In this document: positions 5,180 through 23,543 of the stretch, one piece after another
Numbering within the stretch: position 1 is the first letter of the stretch
Layout: the number at the start of each line of letters is the position of its first letter
IMG/VR virus record: IMGVR_UViG_3300023257_000113
Coordinates: 1-24,260 of that record
Direction: 5' to 3' (one strand)
Length of the DNA: 24,260 nt
Origin: a virus
Lineage: Duplodnaviria > Caudoviricetes
Notes under the pieces: generated by a model
Database searches by the model: none
What the model saw: only the letters and a program-made list of their open reading frames with translations
What the model was told of the DNA's origin: nothing
Made by a program: the position numbers and the translations under genes

Positions 5180-5199
5180 TATTTTTTAACCTCCATGAT

Positions 5200-5889
5200 T
5201 TAATTGCTCTCCGACACGTTAATGCCTTTTAGTTCTACTTCAACTATCGAATGAAAACATTCCAATTCTGTGCTGAATCCCATGTCTCTCGGAATCCCTA
5301 CTGGAGTGTAATTGTATAATTCTGGGTGCAAGTCGTTTTCGTATGATCTAAAAGCCGCCATCAATTGATGTGCCAAATATTCCGCAAGCTTATCTCCTTC
5401 GTATTTTACTCCATCAATTGTTTGAGGTTGATTTTCTTTTGTCCAGATGTCTATTTGGAAATGGATCGCGCTTTCGATGTCTGAATTGTATTGTCCCATT
5501 CTTCCTCCGGATCCTCCAACCACTAACACGTTCATTCTTGGGAATGATGTTTTGCTTAGGGAGACTTTTGCCTTGTCCGGATAAATCCAATTTGTAGTTC
5601 CTCGCTTATAGGTAATATCCACGTTGTTTGTTCCGGCCGCAGTGTTTGAATAAAAAATAACCTTTTGGTTTTGCCAGTCAATCCAATAATCTTCATATTT
5701 TACTTGTGCAGTTCCATCAACCGTCACAGAAACAATACAGGACATCGTTCCAGCTGTTGGCGTCAATTGAAAATCTGTGCTTCCTCCATCGAACTCTTCT
5801 GTTTGTGAAGTTTCTGCTCTACTCCGGGGATCTGTCAATCTCCTTCTAAGAAAATCTACTATTACATTTTTGGGACTTATGAATACCAT
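5200..5889 (-). CDS. Tail terminator-like protein with an inserted beta-domain
   Basis: Likely start is ATG 5889 (MVFISPKNVIVDFLR). Motifs IYPD...FPRMNV...FQIDIWTK; lies directly before the tail tube gene. Confidence 0.65.
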   Translation of the reverse strand: MVFISPKNVIVDFLRRRLTDPRSRAETSQTEEFDGGSTDFQLTPTAGTMSCIVSVTVDGTAQVKYEDYWIDWQNQKVIFYSNTAAGTNNVDITYKRGTTNWIYPDKAKVSLSKTSFPRMNVLVVGGSGGRMGQYNSDIESAIHFQIDIWTKENQPQTIDGVKYEGDKLAEYLAHQLMAAFRSYENDLHPELYNYTPVGIPRDMGFSTELECFHSIVEVELKGINVSESN

Positions 5890-5957: not shown

Positions 5958-5970
5958 TATTTAAATCTAC
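5958..5970 (-). promoter_or_regulatory. Archaeal-type TATA promoter for the tail operon
   Basis: GTAGA-TTTAAATA. A 21-nt spacer leads to an A at 5936, giving a 47-nt leader with two hairpins. Confidence 0.5.
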
Positions 5971-6389
5971 TTGCCTTTCTTCATAACTTGATTAAAATAT
6001 CTATCAACCCAAATTCCTTTCACTTGGTCAAGCGCCGGCCTAAAAAATGGCTGAGCTCTTGTTCCTGGGTGCATTACCTTTTTAGAAAAGATTGTTTTTC
6101 CATCAGATTTGAATTTTAAGGCCTTCTTCGCATTTGGTCTTATGATATGAGGACTTGTTCCGAACTCAACATCTGGCGCATATTCTACATCATCATAAAG
6201 TAAATAATTATTAAATCCCATGGTTGTTGGGTTTATCTTGATTCCATTCCACAATCTTCCCTTATCGACAGGACAATTAATGATCGCCAATTCTTGCATC
6301 TTCAACATCGATTTAAATAAAACCTTTCTTAACTGGTCAATCGTCAATCCCTTGTCTATCTTGCTTTGGATATTAAAATTTATTTTCAT
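5967..6389 (-). CDS. HK97 gp10-like neck / tail completion protein
   Basis: Likely start is 6389 (ATGA overlap). Motifs CPVDKGRL, VEYAPDVEFGT, HPGTRAQPFFRPA. Confidence 0.85.
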   Translation of the reverse strand: MKINFNIQSKIDKGLTIDQLRKVLFKSMLKMQELAIINCPVDKGRLWNGIKINPTTMGFNNYLLYDDVEYAPDVEFGTSPHIIRPNAKKALKFKSDGKTIFSKKVMHPGTRAQPFFRPALDQVKGIWVDRYFNQVMKKGK

Positions 6390-6790
6390 TGGGTTAGTCC
6401 TATCTTTTTCAATACTGCTGTCCGGAAGATTTCTTTTGATTTTGCTTTTCTCCCACCGACAATTTGTTCTATCCTCCACCAAAAATTATTCTTATCCAGA
6501 ATCATATCTCCTGCTTGAACTATCATATCTCCATGCCCTGTGATTGATTCTGGATACTCATTATAAAAAAATCCTTTCACGTTCCCGGTGATTGCCAAAC
6601 CCATCTCATGAATCTGACGGTCCTTCTTTGTGATATCTTGCATAACAAAAAATATCGTATAACCGGATTGTGCGATTGATTTTGTGTCACCCATGCTTCC
6701 GATGTTTTCTGTTTCTTTAATTAGACTTCCTTGCATCCCATGTGTCTTAATTATCCCATGGAAGTCCTCTCTCATTGATTCGTAGCTCAT
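6386..6790 (-). CDS. Head closure / head-tail joining protein (SPP1 gp16-like)
   Basis: 134 aa, beta-rich with a QAGDMI...WRIEQI motif, in the canonical position just before the gp10-like gene. Confidence 0.65.
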   Translation of the reverse strand: MSYESMREDFHGIIKTHGMQGSLIKETENIGSMGDTKSIAQSGYTIFFVMQDITKKDRQIHEMGLAITGNVKGFFYNEYPESITGHGDMIVQAGDMILDKNNFWWRIEQIVGGRKAKSKEIFRTAVLKKIGLTQ

Positions 6791-9700
6791 TGGTCTAACT
6801 CCAACTTTTTAATTATTGCACTCTTGAATATTTCTGATCCATCCATTTCTCTTTCTCCGTTGATTGTCTCAATCCTCCAATATTCTTCGTCATCGTCTTT
6901 TATAACATCTCCCACCTGTGCGCTTACAACACCATTTCCTGTGATTGAGTCCGGATACTCGTGGAATAAGAAAATCCTTGCTTCTCCTGTAAAAGCAGAG
7001 CCCATATCTCTCAATTGTCTATCTTCTCTTAAAATATCCTGAATAGACATGTATATCGCGTAGGATGCCTCCGATACGGCTGTCACAGCTCCAGTGGTGT
7101 CTTTTGTTTCAGTTTGCCTGATAAGTGTTGCCTCTATTCCTTCTTCTGTTATAATGGCTTGTATGTCCGTTCTGGCCGATGCAACTCTGAAACTATTAAA
7201 CACGATATTCAAGAAGAAATCATCAAAGTTGAAATCCTCAGTTAACATCTTAATAAAATTAAAAGTGCTGCCATCATCCAAACTTAATGACTCCAATAAT
7301 TCTAAAAATCTTATCTTCAAAACTTCTAGATCATCACTCAAATTTGTTATCTCAGATATGATCCTTCCGATTGTAAAGTTCTTTGTGTCTGTTAAATTCA
7401 AACCTTCAACCAATTCCTTAATTATTTTGTGGATATCTCCATCTGATAAATTCAAAACATCGGATAGTGATTTGATTGTTTGCTTGGTTACGACATCCCC
7501 CATTGTTTGGGATTCACTCAATATCTTTGTTATCGATCTTGTCAAGCTATCTCCTAGTTCGAATGTGTCTATTAGGATTCTTGATGTTGCTTTTACTACT
7601 GATGCGTTCAAATTCATCTCTTCTGAATATTCTCTTGCCAAATCCCAAATTTTCGAATACTCGTCTGATGTACTTATTGATTCAGTAAGTAATTTTAAAA
7701 TCCATTTGTCTGCCTGCAAATCATCACTAAAATTATAAGATTCAATTAGCTCTCTCAATAATGTATTTACTTCATCATCCGTTAAACCGAACGCCTCACT
7801 CAGAATTCTTGTGAATGCTATCGAATCTCCATCTGTGATTGAAAAGATTTCGTTTAAAGTTCTTCTAACATCCCACGTTCTAGAATAATATTCCACCAAA
7901 TTAAAACTCTCAATCATTGTTTTCAGTAACGTTGCGATTGTTGTCACATCATCAGTCATGTTCATTGTCTCAGAATATTCCCGATTCAAACTCACTGTTT
8001 TTGTCAATTCATCTAATAAACTCAAACTCTCAGATAAACTTCTAAACATCGATTTTAAAACCTCATCTGATAAACTCAAACTTTCAGAGTATTCTCTTTC
8101 CAAAGTCCAAATCTTTGAATACTCATCCAATAAATTTGTAACATCTGTTAATGATTTGTTTATTTGAAATGTTTTTGAATCAGTCAATCCGATTTCTTCT
8201 CCTGGGAAGTTCAAACCCCATGTGATCGTTTGTTGATTTGTCAAAGTGGTTGTTTCCGAGAAGGTCCTATTTATGCTCAATTGTCTTAATACTTCAGCAC
8301 TTACTCCAATCGATTCGTTAAGGACTTTTATAATATTTGAAAAATCCCCATCGGAAAGGTTCAATATTTCTGTGATGTTCTTATCAATTAAAAAAGACTT
8401 TGCATCTGATAAACTCAAACTCTCCTCGATATTCTTATTCATCAAAAATGATTTCAAATCTGATAAATCAAATGTTTCATTAATGTTTCTGTTCATGGAA
8501 AACGTTTTTAAATCTGATAAATTAAAAGTTTCATACTTTTCTGTTTGAGTTCCCTTATTTGTTACGTCTGATAAGTTAAAACTATTTTGGATGTTATGAT
8601 CAATAAAAAATGATTTCAAATCTGATAAATTGAAAGTTTCTTGATTTAATTTGTTTATTGATGATGTTTTCAAGTCTGACAAACTTAAACTATCATCGAT
8701 GTTTCTGTTCATAGAAAATATTTCTAAATCTGATAAATTGAAGCTTTCTCCTGGAAAAAGAAAAACTAACGAGATAAGTTGCTCATTTGTCAAATTTGTT
8801 GTTTCTGAAAGAATTATAACTTTTTGGATTTGTCTGAATAAATCCGCACTTAATCCAAATGATTCACTAAATGTTTTTAGGATATTTGCGAAGTCTCCAT
8901 CGGAAATGTTTAAAGTTTCTTGAATGTTTTTGTTAATCAGAAATGATTTCAAATCTGATAAATTGAAAGTTTCTTGAATGTTTTTGTCAATCAAGAATGT
9001 TTTTAGATCTGACAAATTGAAGCTCTCATCGATGTTTCTGTTCATAGAAATTGCTTTCAAATCTGATAAACTAAAATTTTCAAGTATTGATTTTATTCCT
9101 TGTTTTGAAATATCTCCGGATAAAGAAAAACTATCAGAGTATTCTCTTTCAAAATCAATCCTACGACTAAAATTTGAAGATAAACTAAAACTCTCAGGAA
9201 TATTTCTATTTGAAGATAATGATTTTAAATCATTAAAATTAAATTCTTCCGTATATGTTTCATCATATTCTGTTCCTCCAGCTACTACGGTGAACGTTCC
9301 ATCCTCCGTAAATGTATGAACGGTGTTATCCCCGTCTGTCGTCTTTGTTCCACCTGTACAAGTTCCAAAGTTCGCTGTTACATAGGAAATAATAACAACA
9401 CCACTTCCACCATTACCAGCTGTATAACCACTAGTACGAACACCTCCGCCACCGCCACCTGTGTTGGCTGTACCTGAAGTTGCGTTTGAGTTTGCAATAC
9501 CACCTGCACCACCGCCTCCGGTTCCTCCTGCTCCAGCAGTAGAGTCACCACCTCCACCGCCACCTCCGCCATAAGTTACCGGACTTCCGGTTATAGAATT
9601 TGCTGTCCCATCTCCACCATCTCCGCCTGCTCCAGAACCAACAGCCCCGACTTCACTTGAACCTCCACCGCCACCGCCATTATTCCCATTTGGGTCTCCT

Positions 9701-10038
9701 CCATCATATCCCTGTCCAACGGTTCCGCTACCACCGACTTTGGTGTAACATCCTCCACCACCAGAACCACCATCTTGACCATCTATATAAGCAGAAGAAT
9801 TGTAAGCACCACCACCTCCACCACCAGTTGCTGTGATTGTACTAAACACAGAATCTTCTCCATCTCCGCCAATATCATCATTAGCAGCAGCACCACCATC
9901 TCCAACAGTTATAGAATATGCTTGTGGCGTTACTGTAAGAATTGCATCATATAATAAACCACCTGCACCTCCTCCTCCGCCTACCCATCCTCCGCCTGCA
10001 CCTCCGCCGGCAACAACAAGAGCCTTAACTGTTACCAT
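6787..10038 (-). CDS. Large fibre protein: N-terminal Gly-rich domain, ~37 18-20-aa repeats, C-terminal head-closure-like domain
   Basis: Residues ~1-250 are Gly-rich (LVVAGGGAGG...ANTGGGGGG...GGSGVVIISY). Residues ~260-950 are E-x-h-x-L-S-D repeats. The last 132 aa align without gaps to the 6386-6790 product. Confidence 0.8.
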   Translation of the reverse strand: MVTVKALVVAGGGAGGGWVGGGGGAGGLLYDAILTVTPQAYSITVGDGGAAANDDIGGDGEDSVFSTITATGGGGGGAYNSSAYIDGQDGGSGGGGCYTKVGGSGTVGQGYDGGDPNGNNGGGGGGSSEVGAVGSGAGGDGGDGTANSITGSPVTYGGGGGGGGDSTAGAGGTGGGGAGGIANSNATSGTANTGGGGGGVRTSGYTAGNGGSGVVIISYVTANFGTCTGGTKTTDGDNTVHTFTEDGTFTVVAGGTEYDETYTEEFNFNDLKSLSSNRNIPESFSLSSNFSRRIDFEREYSDSFSLSGDISKQGIKSILENFSLSDLKAISMNRNIDESFNLSDLKTFLIDKNIQETFNLSDLKSFLINKNIQETLNISDGDFANILKTFSESFGLSADLFRQIQKVIILSETTNLTNEQLISLVFLFPGESFNLSDLEIFSMNRNIDDSLSLSDLKTSSINKLNQETFNLSDLKSFFIDHNIQNSFNLSDVTNKGTQTEKYETFNLSDLKTFSMNRNINETFDLSDLKSFLMNKNIEESLSLSDAKSFLIDKNITEILNLSDGDFSNIIKVLNESIGVSAEVLRQLSINRTFSETTTLTNQQTITWGLNFPGEEIGLTDSKTFQINKSLTDVTNLLDEYSKIWTLEREYSESLSLSDEVLKSMFRSLSESLSLLDELTKTVSLNREYSETMNMTDDVTTIATLLKTMIESFNLVEYYSRTWDVRRTLNEIFSITDGDSIAFTRILSEAFGLTDDEVNTLLRELIESYNFSDDLQADKWILKLLTESISTSDEYSKIWDLAREYSEEMNLNASVVKATSRILIDTFELGDSLTRSITKILSESQTMGDVVTKQTIKSLSDVLNLSDGDIHKIIKELVEGLNLTDTKNFTIGRIISEITNLSDDLEVLKIRFLELLESLSLDDGSTFNFIKMLTEDFNFDDFFLNIVFNSFRVASARTDIQAIITEEGIEATLIRQTETKDTTGAVTAVSEASYAIYMSIQDILREDRQLRDMGSAFTGEARIFLFHEYPDSITGNGVVSAQVGDVIKDDDEEYWRIETINGEREMDGSEIFKSAIIKKLELDQ
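7190..9249 (-). repeat. Intragenic degenerate tandem repeat (54-60 bp period)
   Basis: Recurrent plus-strand aatctgataaa/tctgacaaa encoding LSD; units such as ETFNLSDLKSFLINKNIQ. Confidence 0.9.
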
Positions 10039-10112
10039 AATCTCATCCTATCCCATAATTTATCAATAAAAGAATTCTGAGGGAAAAAGAAATGCCAAAT
10101 TTTACGTATCAT
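10032..10112 (-). CDS. 26-aa micro-ORF MIRKIWHFFFPQNSFIDKLWDRMRLW
   Basis: ATGA overlap with the LamG stop, SD-like GTGAGGT just upstream, and a stop overlapping the start of the 1083-aa gene. It fills the gap exactly. Confidence 0.55.
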   Translation of the reverse strand: MIRKIWHFFFPQNSFIDKLWDRMRLW

Positions 10113-10783
10113 CCAAACCTCACATCAAAAATCTTAATAGGTACTGGATCTTCTGTGAATGGATAAGCCAAACCATCTCCACCATTTCTTAATAAAGTTA
10201 CCTCGTCAGAAGTCAAACTTTTATTCCAGATTCCTACTTCATCAATCAATCCGTCCCATAATCCTGTGGTTGAACCTATAAAAATATCTTGTGCTAGAGT
10301 GAATCCACTGTCTATATCACTCCACGTCACAGTTGAAACCCCATTAACATATAAAATAGCACTTGCCCCATTTATAACAGCAACTATATGTGTCCATTCA
10401 TTACTCGCTGTTGCTTGTCCAGTTCCTTCTCCAATTCCATGCGTAGCAATACCAAAATCCCATTTAGATGAATAATTTCCAATATAAAATCTATGGTCTG
10501 ATGTTGCTGATGCCCATATTGCTCCATACTTATCTGATGTATAATCTGTTGGTTTGGCCCAAAATGAAACACTAAACCCAGAATAAAGTGTCGTCCCACT
10601 TCCAAAATTCAAATCTATATTATCATTGGTTCCATCAAAACCAATCGAAGTTCCTATCTTTCCACTTTGAGAATATAAAGCTCCGGTGTATGTCCCGTCG
10701 TTGCTTCCGTGTGCATCTATAATTGAACCACTAGCCTCATCCAATTTATAGTAACTAATTAAACCATCAATTAACGCCATCAT
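10109..10783 (-). CDS. LamG / concanavalin A-like lectin domain protein
   Basis: GLISYYKLDE, FDGTND, FSVSFWAKP, WTHIVAV, LYVNG, GLIDEVGIWNKSLTSDEV. Confidence 0.9.
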   Translation of the reverse strand: MMALIDGLISYYKLDEASGSIIDAHGSNDGTYTGALYSQSGKIGTSIGFDGTNDNIDLNFGSGTTLYSGFSVSFWAKPTDYTSDKYGAIWASATSDHRFYIGNYSSKWDFGIATHGIGEGTGQATASNEWTHIVAVINGASAILYVNGVSTVTWSDIDSGFTLAQDIFIGSTTGLWDGLIDEVGIWNKSLTSDEVTLLRNGGDGLAYPFTEDPVPIKIFDVRFG

Positions 10784-12069
10784 TCCTCCATTAAAGACAT
10801 AATTTTTTTATTCTTTTCTTCGGATCCTTTGAAGTGGCCTGGATGGATATCTTCTGCTCCGAATGAAACTGTGGCCATAATTTTTCCCCCTGGTTTCAAA
10901 AGACTTTTTATCAAAGCAATTGTTTCGTCGAATTTGTCGTCTGGGATATGTTCCAAAACATCAAAGCATAAAATTATATCATACTTATTTTTAAAATCCT
11001 TATGAATCGGCATCGGAATCACTTTAATCTTTTGACGCCTCTTTGTAAATCTATGAGAAATAAAATCTAATGATTTTTTATTGTAATCACAAGCTGAAAC
11101 AATATATTTTTCTTTTGCTAACATGTACGACACTTGACCTGCTCCACTTCCGAAGTCTAGTATCTCTGTTCCTCTGTCAGGGAATTGTTGTTTTATCCCC
11201 TCAACCAATTTCTTATCATAATTTCTTCGTCCCTTAAAATGCCACTCTAAATGATCATAAATTTCAAAGTTATTGTTTTTGTAATATTCCAGGACTTGTT
11301 CTGAGTCTGTGAAGTCCACCTTGTCCATTTCTTCTTTTCTTAATTCGAACCTCTTGACAAATCGTCTCAAAACTTCTTCTCTGGGTACCTTTTCAAATTT
11401 AACTAAATCCTCAATCATTTCTTCTCGATCGTCTTTGTCGATTTTTAATTGTTCTTTGTACATCATAAAATGCGCAGGTCCTACCTCCGCGCCAAAATGC
11501 TCACAGACAACTCCTGTGTTTAAAAAAATCTTATGCCCTTTCTCAACGGCTTCATCACAAAAATATAAATCCTCTGCGATTTGGTATTTGATTCCGTCCT
11601 TCTCTCTCCATTCTAATTTAAAATAAGGAAATTCCATCCCTTCAAATATTTTGGTTTTGATTAAACAACATCCCATCCCGACTCCCTGGACTTCCATTAT
11701 TTGATTAAACTCAAAATCTTCTAGAAAACAATGCTTATCTCCTTCTTTCATTCTTGCCACTGGCAAGTAGGGTTTACCCTTACTAAAATAAAGGCCAGAT
11801 GCAATATCCACATCCATTGCCAATAAAGTATCAAGTGCTCCGCTTGGGATGATTGTGTCTGAGTCGATAAATAAAATATAATCACAATTATCTTTAAGGG
11901 CCATTCTTACAAGTTCGTTTCGTGCCTTGTCAACTATAGTGGAGTTCTGCAAATAAATCTGGACATCGTATCTTTCCTGTTGATAAAATTCACTAATACG
12001 ATTAATGAAATTAACAAAGAAACTTGCTGGAACTACGTTGTATAAAGGCACACATATTCCAATTTTCAT
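10780..12069 (-). CDS. Glycosyltransferase (GT-A, GT2-like) fused to a class I SAM-dependent methyltransferase
   Basis: N-half: IGICVP, ARNELV, YILFIDSD (DxD), GMGCCLI, EDLYFC. C-half: ILDFGSGAG (motif I), YDIILCFDVLEHI, LLKPGG. Confidence 0.9.
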   Translation of the reverse strand: MKIGICVPLYNVVPASFFVNFINRISEFYQQERYDVQIYLQNSTIVDKARNELVRMALKDNCDYILFIDSDTIIPSGALDTLLAMDVDIASGLYFSKGKPYLPVARMKEGDKHCFLEDFEFNQIMEVQGVGMGCCLIKTKIFEGMEFPYFKLEWREKDGIKYQIAEDLYFCDEAVEKGHKIFLNTGVVCEHFGAEVGPAHFMMYKEQLKIDKDDREEMIEDLVKFEKVPREEVLRRFVKRFELRKEEMDKVDFTDSEQVLEYYKNNNFEIYDHLEWHFKGRRNYDKKLVEGIKQQFPDRGTEILDFGSGAGQVSYMLAKEKYIVSACDYNKKSLDFISHRFTKRRQKIKVIPMPIHKDFKNKYDIILCFDVLEHIPDDKFDETIALIKSLLKPGGKIMATVSFGAEDIHPGHFKGSEEKNKKIMSLMEE

Positions 12070-12082
12070 TGTTCTAGGTTAA

Positions 12083-12568
12083 TTACGCAACAGTTACTTT
12101 CCAAGTAATTTGTAAGGTGTCACCATCTGCTACATTGATCGCACTGAATGTCTGTCTACACAACATTGTTCCTTCGCTTGATGCGTTCAAAACTGCTGAT
12201 TCTGTCACTGCTACTGATCCAGTAACTGTAAAAGACTTTAGGAATTGTGCTGTATCATCTGTCACATTTTCTGTCACTGATGTACCAGTTCCGGCTGCTC
12301 TTGCCAAACCATTTTCAGTTTCTTCAGTTTCCAAAGTTGTATCAGTTGCCGTTGCAGTTGTTGTTCCTGTACCTACTGCGATGTAATCGAATGCTGTATA
12401 AGATCCTGCTTGGTCTGTGTTGAACAATCCTGCTACTTCTTTAAACCCTAAATTCATCAATGCGTTTGGAGTATTTACAGTTTCCATCAAATTTCCAACA
12501 TTGTCAAAATGCTCTATTTTAATAAATCCCTGTAGCTGAGCTCCCTCACTTTTTAAATTTTGTTTCAT
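12083..12568 (-). CDS. Small beta-sandwich virion protein (tail-collar-fibre-like); candidate fibre subunit
   Basis: 161 aa with YIAVGTG...DTTLETE...R...TESAVLNA...GTMLCRQTF..INV..GDTLQITWKV. Strong SD GGGAGGT suggests high expression. Confidence 0.65.
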   Translation of the reverse strand: MKQNLKSEGAQLQGFIKIEHFDNVGNLMETVNTPNALMNLGFKEVAGLFNTDQAGSYTAFDYIAVGTGTTTATATDTTLETEETENGLARAAGTGTSVTENVTDDTAQFLKSFTVTGSVAVTESAVLNASSEGTMLCRQTFSAINVADGDTLQITWKVTVA

Positions 12569-12696
12569 TTATTTAACCTCCCATGATTTAGTTGATTATG
12601 AAATACCTGAACATCACATGTGTCGCTTAATCCTACCCTTTCCAGAGTGCCTGGCTTTCTTCCTGCTACTTTGTTTAATCTTTTTAGAATATTCAT
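12565..12696 (-). CDS. 43-aa small protein MNILKRLNKVAGRKPGTLERVGLSDTCDVQVFHNQLNHGRLNK
   Basis: Open frame whose TGA overlaps the ATG of the 161-aa gene. Contains one ERVGLSD motif. Confidence 0.5.
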   Translation of the reverse strand: MNILKRLNKVAGRKPGTLERVGLSDTCDVQVFHNQLNHGRLNK

Positions 12697-12727
12697 AATT
12701 TTTTCTTTGTTATTTGAGATTTGGGAT

Positions 12728-12874
12728 TCATCCATTGTTTTTGGACTCTTTTAATTCTTTTTTCTTAAGGGAATCAATTTCAACAATTCTTCCGGCAATC
12801 TTGGATCTTGAAACTTTTAAGTCTTGTTTGATTTTTCCGTTCTTATCTCTCAAAACGATATCCATTCCTGCCAT
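12728..12874 (-). CDS. 48-aa small protein MAGMDIVLRDKNGKIKQDLKVSRSKIAGRIVEIDSLKKKELKESKNNG
   Basis: ATG lies 21 nt after a TATA box, consistent with a leaderless start. Confidence 0.55.
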   Translation of the reverse strand: MAGMDIVLRDKNGKIKQDLKVSRSKIAGRIVEIDSLKKKELKESKNNG

Positions 12875-12895
12875 GTTACTTTTTAGTTCCCATTA

Positions 12896-12910
12896 TATTT
12901 AAATATTGTT
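12896..12910 (-). promoter_or_regulatory. Archaeal-type TATA promoter for the fibre module
   Basis: AACAATA-TTTAAATA, then 21 nt to ATG 12874. Confidence 0.55.
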
Positions 12911-13733: not shown

Positions 13734-13972
13734 TATCTACTTAGCCCCCATACGATTACTCCTGTCAATAAACTTGCTCCGAAAACCAATATAATTGTCG
13801 CCCATGCTGGCAATCTGCTAGATAAATGATTATAGAGTTTTGTGTTTGTGCTCTTCAAATCAATAAATTCGCCTCTTATCTCTGTCCTAAATTCTTTAAA
13901 ATCATTAGAAACATTCTCAATCATATTCCTAGAAACCTTCCCAAAAGAGCAACCTCCGTTTTCCTTAGCCAT
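13733..13972 (-). CDS. Small coiled-coil protein with one C-terminal transmembrane helix
   Basis: 79 aa; hydrophobic WATIILVFGASLLTGVIVWGL. Confidence 0.7.
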   Translation of the reverse strand: MAKENGGCSFGKVSRNMIENVSNDFKEFRTEIRGEFIDLKSTNTKLYNHLSSRLPAWATIILVFGASLLTGVIVWGLSR

Positions 13973-14342
13973 ATATTTTCACCAATAAATTTTCATAATC
14001 ATCCCTAAACGGCAAACTGCCCCCTAATGCAATTACTTCAATCAGCTTTTCTTTGGTTCCCCATTCGACTATATCCTTCGCAGTCTTTTTCCCGATTCCG
14101 TTAATCGAACATAATTCCTTAAAAAATAAATCGTCAGGCGTATATTGCACTTCTTCAATCTGTTTTGTTTCTACTACCTGGTTCCCTATTTGTCCTTCAG
14201 TAGTTTTAACGGAGAATCCATAAGAAATTCCTAACTCTCTTGATAGTTCTATACTTTCCCCTGTATTTATTGTGGCCCAATAGCAATCGTTTGCTTTCCC
14301 AATACGAATCTTAACTGGCCCACCATTATTGGTGAATTCCAT
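13965..14342 (-). CDS. Helix-hairpin-helix DNA-binding domain protein
   Basis: ELCSINGIGKKTAKDI is an HhH motif. The N-terminal domain resembles the C-terminus of the 14812-15090 product. Confidence 0.75.
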   Translation of the reverse strand: MEFTNNGGPVKIRIGKANDCYWATINTGESIELSRELGISYGFSVKTTEGQIGNQVVETKQIEEVQYTPDDLFFKELCSINGIGKKTAKDIVEWGTKEKLIEVIALGGSLPFRDDYENLLVKIYG

Positions 14343-16430: not shown

Positions 16431-16505
16431 GTCCTTATCGTGGACGATTCGCCTTACAATTTGTCGCCAGTAAGATGACGAAATATTTAAAAAAAAATAA
16501 ATAAA
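16431..16505 (-). terminator. U9 tract followed by two hairpins between the MCP and decoration genes
   Basis: T9 at 16497-16489; stem TTCGT-cat-CTTAC/GTAAG-GCGAA (16482-16448); GTCC/GGAC hairpin (16445-16431). Confidence 0.5.
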
Positions 16506-19107: not shown

Positions 19108-19383
19108 CTAGAACCCTACAACTCGTTTCTTATCTTTAGTATATGATAGTTCTCCGGTTTTTTTGTCCCTATAATATTTCACTATGTGGTCAAGAAGATA
19201 TGAGTTTGTTTCTTTGACGTACTTGTTATGAGATTTAATCATACTGACATATAACCCAACATATTTGACTATCTCCTTGTCTTTTGGTTTTAGGTTTTCC
19301 TGGAGTATTTTTAAATCTTCATTCAAATTACCTCCGATTCTATTGACTTCGTGAATACTAATTTCTTCTAGACTTTCTTTCAT
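19108..19383 (-). CDS. Hypothetical protein (91 aa)
   Basis: Overlaps the end of the protease gene; SD-like AAGGAG upstream. Confidence 0.6.
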   Translation of the reverse strand: MKESLEEISIHEVNRIGGNLNEDLKILQENLKPKDKEIVKYVGLYVSMIKSHNKYVKETNSYLLDHIVKYYRDKKTGELSYTKDKKRVVGF

Positions 19384-20113
19384 GTATCGGTTTTGTAACG
19401 ACTCCTTTTAATCGTTCAATTTCATCTAAGTACAACCCAATCTTATTAATATATCCAAATCTGTTCGCTGCGTCATATCTTCCTATTCCTATTAATTCAC
19501 CTTTATCGTTTAATACAGGGCTTCCAGAATCTCCACCAAATAAACTAAAGTCAACTCCAAACACATGTTCTCTATCTCCGAGTTTATCAGTCATTCCGTC
19601 TAAGTCTGAAACATAACCGTGTCTTATGTTAGTTCCTTGTAGTGCTGGATTTCCAACGATATAAATTTTATCTCCGTATTTGACATCACTTCTATTTGGT
19701 ATTGCTGGAAGGTTTTTATATACTCTACCTTTTGATTTTGCTATAAGTACATCTGTATGAAAATTCTCATACATTATTTCAAACGGCACTTCTCCAATCT
19801 TCATTTCTTTATTTGTTATATCAATTTCAATATCCATCATTCCGAATGGTGTCTTTGTTTTTATCTGTTCTAATGATTGGCAGATATGAGCAGTTGTGAT
19901 ATAATAATCATTAACAAAAAATCCAACACCACCCTGTTTTCGTTTTCCTTCTACTGAGTCTGCTGTGTAATTAGCAATGTGAATATCTTTTGGCATGTTA
20001 TAAATTTTTTCTTCTATGTCTTTTTGGCTGTTTTGTTCTAAGTATTCTAATCCTTGAGTTAATGTTAATCCAGACATACCCAACCACAATAAAAATTCTC
20101 TTCTATTTATCAT
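19358..20113 (-). CDS. Trypsin-like (S1) serine protease with a twin-arginine-like N-terminus
   Basis: Catalytic motifs ITTAH, TDV and GGDSGSPV, plus VGNP. Likely start is 20113 (MINRREFLLWLGMSGLTL) with GGAG upstream. Confidence 0.85.
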   Translation of the reverse strand: MINRREFLLWLGMSGLTLTQGLEYLEQNSQKDIEEKIYNMPKDIHIANYTADSVEGKRKQGGVGFFVNDYYITTAHICQSLEQIKTKTPFGMMDIEIDITNKEMKIGEVPFEIMYENFHTDVLIAKSKGRVYKNLPAIPNRSDVKYGDKIYIVGNPALQGTNIRHGYVSDLDGMTDKLGDREHVFGVDFSLFGGDSGSPVLNDKGELIGIGRYDAANRFGYINKIGLYLDEIERLKGVVTKPIHERKSRRN

Positions 20114-20345
20114 TTTGCCACTCTCCAATCCTTTCCATATAATGAGCATAAGTTCCAGATACTTCGAATGGTTTTGTTACAACTTCAAAATCATCAAACC
20201 AAATATAATCAAAAGCATTTCTTAAAAACATTCTTTGGTCACCATCCATCCATATCTTATAAATAGGTATCATCTTAATTGGATGAGTCTTTTCAGCTTT
20301 CTTAACGTTGTAAAGCATAGCTTCTATATTTTGATTTTTTCTCAT
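20103..20345 (-). CDS. Hypothetical protein (80 aa)
   Basis: TAATG coupling to the phosphoesterase gene; overlaps the protease start. Confidence 0.6.
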   Translation of the reverse strand: MRKNQNIEAMLYNVKKAEKTHPIKMIPIYKIWMDGDQRMFLRNAFDYIWFDDFEVVTKPFEVSGTYAHYMERIGEWQNDK

Positions 20346-21197: not shown

Positions 21198-23543
21198 TTA
21201 TTCTTCTTCGATGAATATCATCGTACTTCTACAATTTACATGACTAGGTGGAGATTGACCTTCCCAACCACTACTTGAATCTTTGAAGTTGTCGTCTAAT
21301 CCTATTGTTTGGCCGTCTAGTCTCTTACATAATTCTGAGGTTCGGTCGTCCTCGTGTGTTAACCATTGCTTTTTGTAATCCATACCGCTTGACTTCATTG
21401 CCAATAACCTTCCGTTGTTTTCTGCTCGGTTTGTTTCTGTTCTGGCAATCATGCTTGCTCGGTTGTTTCCTACGTTGAATACTTTAGTCACTCGTTTCTT
21501 TAGTTTTGTGATTCCTTCTCCGTTGATTATTCCTCTAGATAACTCGGCCCTCAAATCATTTGCTACTTCTTCGGTCATCTCCTTAATGTTCTCGAATGTT
21601 TGGTCTTGGAGGAACTCTACGGCTTTGTTGTTTACTGGTAAATTCTGGCCGATTTGTTTTTCTGATTTGTCCCATCCAAAGTTAAACTCCATACTGATAA
21701 CTTCATTGACTATCTTTTTGAATGAGAAGATTTCGAATATCTTTTTGATAATGCCGGGTATATCATCTATTCCTTTAATCTGCAATAGTGTTTCTGGTTT
21801 GTTTTGGTCATCTAGTAATTCGAACACCTTTGTTTTGTTCTTTCTTAGTAGGTCTAAAATTCTTTTCTTTAGCTTCTTTTCGGAGTTGCCCGTCTCTTCG
21901 TTTGATACGAGTACGGTTGGGGAGTCTGTTGTTTGGGCTTTCTTAATATCCTTTGGTTTATCGCCCTTTGCTGGTTTGCCTGTCATTTTGTCTCGAGTGT
22001 CTTGGCTATCTCTGTTGATTTTGTCTGATGCGCTTTGTAGTGGATTGTCTGTTAAAATATCTCGGTCGGCTGTTTGCTGTCTGTCGCTTCGCATTGAGCC
22101 TGTTTCATCGCCGCCTTCAAGTGCATCTAGTCCTTCCGCATTTCTAATCTCATTGACTGTTTTTAGGTCTGCGTCGGTTTGTAATTTGTAAAGTCCCCAC
22201 TTCTTTGTTTCCTCATCAATATCGAAAATCTTGTATTTGTATCTTATTCCCTCAACTCCGAACTCCGGGATGATTTCTGTGTTTACGTGGTATTCGATTA
22301 GTCTTAGTAATGGATAAATGATTCTTTTCTTTGCAACAGAAGTTTGAACTATTTGGTTGGCGCTTCCCTTTGCGTCCTCCGTAAATCCCAACTCTGTTGC
22401 AGTTATACCAAAGGCTCCCCAGACTAATTTGCTCCACCATTTTTGACTTTCGATTAATTCTAATTCTTGGTTTGTGAATCCTATTCTCTCGAACTTTGGC
22501 ATCTTGTTGACCATTGGTAATTTGTGGTTTGCTCTCTTCCAGTTGCCTAGCGTATCTTGAACCCTTTGTTGTTGAATCCACTGTGTTCCAAACGCCTTCA
22601 AATCCTCAGCATTCATCCCTTCTAATCCCAAGACTCCTGGAGGGATTGAATTGTCGTTGAAATATTCCAATTGACTCTCCACTGCATAAATTAGTGTCTG
22701 AACTGTTTTTGCCAAAACCTCCATAGATGAACGTCCGTATAAATTGTCTGTTCGTACTTTCTTTTCTAACCACACTATTTCTCGCCTTCCGAACGGAATT
22801 GGTCTGGCACCTGTGTTGAATCCATATTGAAAATATGCGCCTTCTTCTTGGGCTTCGACTGCATCCATTTCCATTTGAATGGCTGGATAGTCCATCTGTT
22901 GGGTTTGTTCTGCGCCTTCTCCTAAAATATTCTTCATTAAAATTAAGTCTGCTCTGGTTGTATAAAAACCATAAGGATCAGGATTCTTTGTGAAGGCCAT
23001 TCCGTCTCTAGCGCAAATTTCTACCATTTCGCCAAACATATTAAACACCTTAACAATGATTCCCGAGTTAAGTTCCAGTAAATCTGGCAACATCATTCGA
23101 ACAATCATCTCCCAACTTTCTTTGTTTGTATTTGGATTATGGAAGAACTCTTGAATACGCTCGACATCGCTTTCTTTGCCTGGTACTTCATTGCCGGCAC
23201 GATCCTCTGCGACTATTTCCCACTCAACTGAACACACCTCATCTATAATTGCCGTCACACACATATCAACATAAATACTCGCTGCTAATTGTCTATAGTA
23301 ATTAAGGTCTTTGTATCTAGGATAACCAAACGGTGCCTTATAGAAGAAGTTTGGAATATATGCTTTTGGGAGTCCGTCTCTTGTCTCCTCATAAACAGTC
23401 ACAGCATTTTCACCTTTTGGTGCTTGAATTTGTTGGGCTTTGTTGTACGGTCCTGGCGTACGTCTGCCTAACGGTTGCAGAACTGATTCACTGCCGATTT
23501 CCCAGGGGCAGTTTGAAAATATCGACGCTGATTTTCTTTCCAT
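21198..23543 (-). CDS. Portal protein fused to a C-terminal MuF (SPP1 gp7-like) domain
   Basis: Portal motifs YGRSSME, YFNDNSIPPGVL, AFGITATELG, KTVNEIRNAEGL. MuF motifs RASMIARTETNRA, KQWLT..DDRT..LC..LDGQ, PPSHVNCRS. Confidence 0.9.
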   Translation of the reverse strand: MERKSASIFSNCPWEIGSESVLQPLGRRTPGPYNKAQQIQAPKGENAVTVYEETRDGLPKAYIPNFFYKAPFGYPRYKDLNYYRQLAASIYVDMCVTAIIDEVCSVEWEIVAEDRAGNEVPGKESDVERIQEFFHNPNTNKESWEMIVRMMLPDLLELNSGIIVKVFNMFGEMVEICARDGMAFTKNPDPYGFYTTRADLILMKNILGEGAEQTQQMDYPAIQMEMDAVEAQEEGAYFQYGFNTGARPIPFGRREIVWLEKKVRTDNLYGRSSMEVLAKTVQTLIYAVESQLEYFNDNSIPPGVLGLEGMNAEDLKAFGTQWIQQQRVQDTLGNWKRANHKLPMVNKMPKFERIGFTNQELELIESQKWWSKLVWGAFGITATELGFTEDAKGSANQIVQTSVAKKRIIYPLLRLIEYHVNTEIIPEFGVEGIRYKYKIFDIDEETKKWGLYKLQTDADLKTVNEIRNAEGLDALEGGDETGSMRSDRQQTADRDILTDNPLQSASDKINRDSQDTRDKMTGKPAKGDKPKDIKKAQTTDSPTVLVSNEETGNSEKKLKKRILDLLRKNKTKVFELLDDQNKPETLLQIKGIDDIPGIIKKIFEIFSFKKIVNEVISMEFNFGWDKSEKQIGQNLPVNNKAVEFLQDQTFENIKEMTEEVANDLRAELSRGIINGEGITKLKKRVTKVFNVGNNRASMIARTETNRAENNGRLLAMKSSGMDYKKQWLTHEDDRTSELCKRLDGQTIGLDDNFKDSSSGWEGQSPPSHVNCRSTMIFIEEE

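Follow-up and report, generated by a model that had tools for sequence, protein, structure and literature searches.

The virus record IMGVR_UViG_3300023257_000113 of IMG/VR (Duplodnaviria; Caudoviricetes) encodes a long protein with many short repeats, close to a protein of 161 amino acids (aa) and two very small genes. The stretch analysed here, positions 1 to 24,260 of that record, is called the window; its main genes all lie on the minus strand of these 24,260 bases, and the CheckV completeness estimate is 65%. We call the repeat protein the rope and the 161-aa protein the bead, names that follow the interpretation given further below. The features concerned are the following:

6386..6790, minus strand: free head-closure (stopper) protein, 134 aa, preceding neck1, terminator and tube; AlphaFold2 (AF2) model with a predicted local distance difference test (pLDDT) of 69.7
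6787-10038, minus strand: rope open reading frame (ORF), 1,083 residues with 37 short repeats
6787..7191, minus strand: C-terminal domain of the rope, a full-length stopper paralog (41% identity over 130 aa, E 3e-40, to 6386-6790)
7201..9267, minus strand: repeat region of the rope, 37 units of 18-20 aa each
9382..10029, minus strand: N-terminal Gly-rich domain of the rope, an exchangeable tip (PF21722, E 3e-20)
12083..12568, minus strand: bead, 161 aa, a gp80/whisker-like beta-sandwich by Pfam, AF2 model and structure search
12565..12735, minus strand: micro-gene 2, 56 aa, a predicted helix, then E-x-V-G-L-S-D and a strand like the N-terminal arm of the bead; 12 homologs aligned
12576..12581, minus strand: Shine-Dalgarno (SD) site GGAGGT of the bead gene, 7 nucleotides upstream of the bead start
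12728..12874, minus strand: micro-gene 1, 48 aa, resembling a copy of the second half of the N-terminal hairpin of the bead, then a basic tail; 11 homologs aligned
12896..12903, minus strand: TATA-box-like TTTAAATA, 22 nucleotides upstream of the start of micro-gene 1 (12874)

A first-pass annotation, made from the letters of the window alone, had counted about 37 repeats spaced 18-20 aa apart, and this count holds: 37 units tile residues 264 to ~951 of the rope, with spacings of 18 (24 times), 19 (twice) and 20 (10 times). The motif it gave, E-x-h-x-(L/I)-(S/T)-D, lies well above chance, being present in its strict form E-x-h-x-[LI]-[ST]-D in 15 of the 37 units (shuffled sequences, n=2000: mean 0.09, maximum 2) and in a looser form in 31 (shuffle maximum 10), but the conserved core is longer. 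It is a strictly alternating strand of 13 residues, h-x-[KR]-x-h-x-E-x-h-x-L-[ST]-D, followed by a variable linker of 5-7 residues. The best periodicity lag is 18 in the window rope and 20 in both the KPP25 rope and a 325-aa protein of GP4. While the repeats had been seen correctly, the Gly-rich PF21722 N-terminus and the stopper paralog at the C-terminus had been overlooked. Close relatives tune the length of the rope and exchange its tips: the number of units varies from 9 to 39 among 17 distinct rope-stopper fusions with an intact start, and the N-terminal cargo is Gly-rich (window), a LamG domain (P0121, P0122), an internal LamG domain (P0123) or absent. The LamG domain that is fused to the rope in P0121-P0123 is a separate gene in the window, and its product is a candidate accessory tip:

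10109..10783, minus strand: LamG/ConA-like lectin-fold protein, 224 aa (PF13385, E 2e-18)

Within the window rope, a ten-unit block of 183 residues is duplicated (~residues 331-450 and 514-632; window 8142-9048, rope residues 331-632), which suggests that ropes grow by block duplication. One locus (L028:8862-14987) has a rope of 2041 aa with ~87 units, and a second rope protein too, beside a single bead gene; in another (L179:125-3079) the rope is divided over two ORFs, with 15 and 13 units.

The final 134 residues of the rope are a paralog of the adjoining free stopper gene. That gene lies between the adaptor and neck1/terminator, as in head-closure proteins of the SPP1 gp16 type, and in its model the free copy has the corresponding stopper fold. 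Foldseek gives it a probability of 1.0 and template modelling (TM) scores of 0.42-0.53 to neck chains of Pam3, T1, phiCD508, phi812, Douge and SPP1; the top six matches are neck/stopper-type chains (including the T1 and phi812 stoppers), and the SPP1 connector is found at rank 14. The rope-fused copy would share this fold, as its 41% identity to the free one suggests. From the last unit to the C-terminus there are 148-150 aa in 15 of the 17 distinct fusions (L164 differs, and L179 ends at a contig edge). A sequencing error as the origin of the fusion is ruled out by the 17 distinct cases. In a tree of 73 stopper domains, limited by few alignment columns, the second copies group together (100/100, 19 rows), apart from the rope-fused first copies, which have a branch of their own (87/78, 19 rows; core 99/94); the apparent exceptions are fragments at contig edges and L140, whose second copy bears its own rope. 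Judged by sequence, the rope thus appears to be tied to a ring of the neck or tail, via a ring protein other than in the solved cases. Variants of this arrangement exist. L091:409-1307 encodes two stopper paralogs and no rope, and in L140:3-1279 each of the two stoppers apparently has a rope of its own. Relatives that lack a rope mostly have something else at the N-terminus of their single stopper (L084:9722-10399, L081:861-1340, L092:9893-10405 and others), be it a domain of ~90 aa or a short peptide with aromatic and acidic residues of the F-D-x-x-x-F-D type. The stopper N-terminus seems to be a docking site of general use in this family.

The bead has a single Pfam match, to PF23140 (GP4 fibre I gp80; E 5e-4, 20.9 bits), and the same entry is matched at E<=0.01 by 18 of 40 diverse members of the bead family, which comprises 890 relatives among 1237 candidates scored. 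In the AF2 model (pLDDT 86.5) residues ~8-34 (12467-12547) make an N-terminal hairpin, and GP4 gp80 is without such a hairpin. The best structural match to this model among 48,161 chains (VIA) is a domain of the HFTV1 baseplate hub (Z 11.9, root-mean-square deviation (rmsd) 3.0, 130 aligned, model 1-161). GP4 gp80 (8jou_a) is found in the same search with Z 8.5 (rmsd 3.6, 118 aligned, model 36-159), as are a phi812 baseplate chain (Z 7.6) and the Sf14 whisker (9c39_K, Z 6.6), and Foldseek additionally yields connector chains of Bas63. A profile of the bead family matches the KPP25 ortholog of gp41, a fibre protein of the Pseudomonas podophage A1002, at E 2e-5 in a set of 12 proteins. A PDB search with the single bead sequence gave nothing credible, and the ESM Atlas returned only clusters without names. 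Among 50,697 records of cultured phages there are four weak bead matches; the two inspected have no annotated rope, and in one of them, BUCT-ZZ01, the gene after the bead, the sole one scored, is not a rope. Bead-like folds occur in other settings as well: the HFTV1 hub seems to hold two of them in tandem (PDB 9h4p_BD, residues 377-568), and matches in BFVD suggest bead-fold proteins in the haloviruses HHTV-1 and HGTV-1 and in filamentous lipothrixviruses.

The first-pass annotation had proposed co-occurrence of the repeat and bead families as a check, and its expectation was confirmed among related genomes. We examined 75 stopper-family loci, of which 21 rows span adaptor to stopper, the other 54 being too short to score; after four pairs with identical stoppers had been merged, the 21 rows became 17 distinct loci. 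All seven that bear a bead (the window included) have a rope, both micro-genes and two stoppers, and all ten without a bead have no rope, no micro-gene and one stopper, the contig ending just past the stopper in three of the ten. In loci covered from adaptor to stopper, a rope was never found without a bead. Further away, a rope score of at least 12, a threshold that compares with a maximum of 6.5 for shuffled proteins, is reached in 48 of 99 distant bead loci (the window's own contig left out), and in 33 of the 48 bead loci of at least 14 kb, or 20 of 29 clusters at 70% identity.

Upstream of the bead lie the two micro-genes. The 48-aa ORF is present as described by the first-pass annotation, while the second one, taken there as 43 aa with a single ERVGLSD motif, is better read as 56 aa starting at 12735, because 11 homologs keep the upstream helix. 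Its motif is indeed there, but what follows continues like the N-terminal hairpin of the bead and not like a rope unit; longer homologs bear the whole hairpin, and the window protein has lost its second half. The likeness of the micro-proteins to the bead hairpin, also claimed earlier, is weak in pairwise profile comparison with the close bead family (hhalign, E 0.035 and 0.11), but becomes clear with a profile of distant beads. This profile, the first 30 columns of 56 distant beads with the window clade left out, was searched against 6455 ORFs. Its top 17 distinct non-bead matches are all short ORFs of 42-75 aa, namely the micro-proteins of the window clade, three free hairpin ORFs in distant loci (L059, L046, L057) and a split bead start (L050). 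The 48-aa protein of the window has E 7e-4 and the micro-protein 2 homologs of L085 and L089 have E 2e-6; the 56-aa protein of the window is not among the matches listed. For both micro-genes pN is below pS (the non-synonymous and synonymous proportions of differences) in every pair, 55 of 55 for micro-gene 1 and 66 of 66 for micro-gene 2, and identity is highest at codon position 2; with saturated pS and alignments built at the protein level, this coding pattern carries modest weight. L085 and L089 keep both micro-genes despite gene reshuffling. The micro-proteins thus resemble free copies of a segment that is missing from gp80 and cannot be seen in rope-bound gp41, and a role as placeholder or cap is plausible.

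The TATA element reported before 12874 was found as TTTAAATA at 12903-12896, and all 10 aligned loci have the octamer TTTA[AT]ATA at this distance from the start. It is likely an archaeal-type promoter giving a leaderless transcript. The octamer is not over-represented in the window (7 found against 5.9 expected), and it also stands in two other intergenic gaps on the minus strand, at 5958-5965 (after neck1) and 16484-16491 (after the capsid gene). A scan of the window for sigma-70 promoters and terminators stayed at chance level, and a bacterial -10 box was rejected: TATAAT occurs in the window, but the relatives keep TTTA[AT]ATA and not TATAAT. The host is likely archaeal, as judged from this TATA-like and not sigma-70-like promoter and from the closest bead relative among 25 genome loci (L109; 66% identical, with both micro-genes), whose record is labelled 'archaeon'. 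The strong SD of the bead gene had been noted correctly. It is among the three strongest of 27 starts checked, together with tube and tail chaperone, and a GGAGG-type site precedes the bead gene in 12 of 12 relatives checked (AGAGG in one). A strong conserved SD together with an own promoter suggests a high copy number of the bead. Bead and tail-tube genes have a near-identical upstream stretch, AA-x-TAAATCATGG(G)AGGTTAAA, at 12569-12595 and 5180-5207 (minus strand), perhaps a shared signal for highly expressed translation.

The surrounding genes are ordered as portal with a Mu gpF-like domain, prohead protease (by position), major capsid protein, adaptor, bead/rope module, neck1, terminator (by position), tail tube, chaperone and tape measure. 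The tape measure is short (284 aa), and no sheath was found in the window. Three genes of the head region deserve mention, all on the minus strand: the portal fused to the Mu gpF-like domain (21198-23543), a trypsin-like protease that has a hydrophobic/RR segment at its N-terminus and is encoded between portal and prohead protease (19358-20149), and a helix-hairpin-helix protein within the head module (13965-14342). The module itself includes one further gene, whose product is a possible modifier and not essential to the module:

10780..12069, minus strand: glycosyltransferase-methyltransferase fusion, 429 aa (Pfam/PHROG)

This gene follows the bead in five of the seven distinct complete bead loci and is absent in L085 and L089. 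In two other loci (L059:8784-9962, L046:6680-7849) a different gene, by eye apparently glycosyltransferase-like, lies between the free hairpin ORF and the bead. Glycosyltransferase genes near the bead, together with Thr-rich bead loops, make glycosylation of the fibre possible.

We consider it quite probable that the 37-repeat protein is the rope of a chain-like, beaded neck fibre, with the 161-aa protein as beads and the stopper paralog as anchor, since this fits the bead fold, the co-occurrence and the published fibre structures of GP4, Bas63 and A1002. The ruler of the first-pass annotation survives in this form, although the principle is not new: rope-and-bead fibres have already been published and structurally solved in a few bacterial phages. 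In the proposed mechanism, the stopper paralog at the C-terminus of the rope would assemble into the head-tail neck, fused and free stoppers entering it as a mixed ring or as two rings. Each unit of 18-20 residues would complete the beta-sandwich of one bead dimer; one 161-aa unit per repeat had been assumed earlier, and by analogy with the solved fibres a dimer is the likely occupant. This would amount to ~74 beads per rope, or as many as ~440 if there are six ropes, a demand that the separate promoter and an SD site among the strongest checked would fit. Fibre length would follow from the number of units, and we estimate it at between ~100 nm (A1002 spacing, 300 Å per 11 dimers) and ~225 nm (fully extended). 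A fully extended chain measures 3.3 Å per residue. The tail of the window virus would be ~45 nm, scaled from HFTV1, for which the accessible part of the paper gives a 560-Å tail and a tape measure of 341 residues (PMC12494034). The tip domain likely would serve reversible adsorption.

A more tentative part of the proposal concerns assembly. The N-terminal hairpin of the bead may be a placeholder in the rope groove, displaced by the rope and retained in rope-less domains such as that of the HFTV1 hub, and the two micro-proteins may be free placeholders supplied in trans, chaperoning or capping beads. The scheme as a whole would have the fibres assemble by donor-strand exchange like chaperone-usher pili, with the bead's own hairpin in the groove until the rope displaces it, free hairpin copies as placeholders or caps in trans, a rope hung from a duplicated essential stopper, and 9-39 bead pairs forming a fibre several times the length of the tail; taken with all its parts, it is possible but doubtful. 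The readable docking motif of 13 residues makes stoichiometry and length control directly testable with small recombinant pieces.

Several results weigh against the rope-and-bead interpretation. The PF23140 score of the window bead is below the cut-off of 27 bits. The best bead match lies inside the HFTV1 hub, where no rope is described, and the fold is also found in tail-collar adaptor domains, so the fold alone is no proof of bead function. The PDB match of the bead family profile to A1002 gp41, aligned from gp41 residue 14 and including the hairpin, is weak (E 0.3). A search of the PDB with the rope profile gave nothing credible and found no solved rope; the profile gives no score on the GP4 or KPP25 ropes, and the window rope shares no sequence similarity with those that have been solved. 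Confidence in the stopper model, which was built from an alignment of six rows, is moderate. The seven-to-ten split comes from related genomes and not from 17 independent events, and 15 of the 48 bead loci of at least 14 kb have no rope at the threshold; some of these show short ropes below it (L109, and by eye L016 and L036), and others show none. 

Rope and bead profiles were compared with each other, and similarity was not found. In the KPP25 nozzle-rope the rope score picks out four units spaced by 20 at residues 392-452, close to the nozzle, in the part that would hold four gp41 dimers; at 3.0 it is within the shuffle range (maximum 6.5) and serves as a lead only. A complex prediction with four full-length beads and a 42-residue, two-unit piece of rope scored 0.00, with no controls folded, and is counted neither way.

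Other explanations use the same genes in a different manner. The repeats could fold by themselves, as a beta-solenoid or trimeric beta-fibre, into a neck fibre in which the 161-aa protein would be a low-copy, DUF3751-like tail-collar adaptor; the bead does match a self-contained hub domain of HFTV1 over its whole length, the tail-collar domain PF12571 (DUF3751) is weakly matched by 3 of 40 bead-family members, and there are bead loci without a detected rope. The repeats themselves speak otherwise, with their irregular 18/19/20 spacing, a single alternating strand with E, K/R and D on its buried face, and a number that varies from 9 to 39, and the high copy number suggested for the bead and the lack of any rope without a bead in the covered loci point the same way. 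The window bead is, moreover, a stand-alone 161-aa ORF with no PF12571 match at E<=0.05, and on balance self-folding repeats seem improbable. Even less probable, to the point of being a marginal case, is that beads polymerise via their own N-terminal donor strands, in the manner of pili or of phage A-1(L), the repeat protein merely nucleating or bundling them. The closest solved relatives use a rope as far as their accessible texts describe, the N-terminal segment of A1002 gp41 has no density in the fibre and so would be no structural linker there, and in the window a rope-like protein is present and co-inherited with the bead, unlike the A-1(L) type of chain; such polymerisation would nonetheless account for an N-terminal arm that resembles half a rope unit, for the free arm copies, and for A-1(L) itself, whose chains of trimers come without a described rope in the part of the report available (PMC10966104).

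Two further alternatives leave rope and bead in place. The micro-genes may be translational spacers or regulators, or small proteins with another task in which a decayed part of a duplicated bead gene survives, which is a substantial possibility if short of an even chance. It would suit the loss of the second hairpin half in the 56-aa protein, the weak pairwise similarity, the 3' end of micro-gene 2 that overlaps the bead SD and the lack of such an ORF in the majority of the distant bead loci; it suits less well that both genes are kept in all seven complete bead loci, reshuffled L085 and L089 included, that their codon-position pattern is typical of coding genes, and that similar free hairpins stand in three distant loci. 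The fused stopper, for its part, could make up a ring of its own on top of the normal stopper ring, or be the sole stopper used, instead of sharing one ring with the free copy. This seems less likely than not. In its favour, L091 encodes two stopper paralogs and no rope, both copies appear to be rope-fused in L140, and the two copies are separate, long-retained branches; on the other hand, a rope-fused stopper comes with a second copy wherever both flanks are covered, which would fit a need to dilute rope copies within one ring.

It is worth noting how the rope-and-bead reading compares with known systems. A stopper-anchored rope or a micro-protein partner was found in none of the titles and abstract openings of the literature searched, mostly outside subscription papers. 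HFTV1 is a short-tailed archaeal siphovirus with a tail similar in size to that of the window virus, and its baseplate hub gp44 (PDB 9H4P) includes a domain with the full bead fold, hairpin included. Unlike the window bead, this domain is embedded in a hub of 953 aa, and no rope or chain-like fibre is described in the accessible text. The Anabaena myophage A-1(L) has a long beaded neck fibre (gp82-gp81-gp80) of ~100 nm with a distal carbohydrate-binding module; in contrast to the window, its beads are trimeric, ~14 per fibre, and the part of the paper available describes no rope protein (PMC10966104). Closer to the window is fibre I of the Ralstonia podophage GP4 (PDB 8JOU; PF23140), with the bead fold and a rope of ~20-residue period. 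Its gp80 lacks residues 1-35 of the window bead, and its rope, a protein of its own that hooks onto an Ig-like collar of 15-fold symmetry, carries five gp80 dimers, according to the available portions of two papers (PMC13730344, PMC12609058). In the felixounaviruses Bas63 and Sf14 (PDB 9MT4, 9C39) the fibres are also located at the neck, and in the accessible text the rope is an N-terminal extension of a ring protein and completes the incomplete beta-sandwiches of whisker dimers, as proposed here, the dimers wrapping the collar ropes 'such as beads on a string' (PMC12609058). The anchor there, unlike a stopper, is an accessory Ig-like dodecameric collar, and each rope has two dimers (PMC12609058).

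The nearest likeness is to A1002. As far as the available text of its description goes, eleven gp40/gp41 dimers each sit in an augmented beta-sheet with the rope part of the hexameric nozzle-rope gp39, at ~20 residues per dimer, and the rope is fused N-terminally to the hexameric nozzle subunit (PMC13730344; PDB 44NX, 26LA). In both systems the rope would thus be fused N-terminally to a subunit of a hexameric neck or tail ring that works with a partner gene, and gp41 shares the N-terminal hairpin and aligns with the window bead family. The same text has gp41 modelled from residue 34, its first ~30 residues being without density (PMC13730344). The window system differs in its anchor, a complete stopper paralog in a tube-tailed virus where A1002 has half of a split nozzle, in having one bead gene and 37 sites against 11, and in its sequence-recognisable repeats, free hairpin micro-copies and likely archaeal host. 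Rope-and-bead fibres would thereby be extended to a family of tube-tailed, probably archaeal viruses, with a duplicated core neck protein as a new type of anchor, and the micro-proteins point to an assembly step that would explain the missing 30 residues of A1002 gp41.

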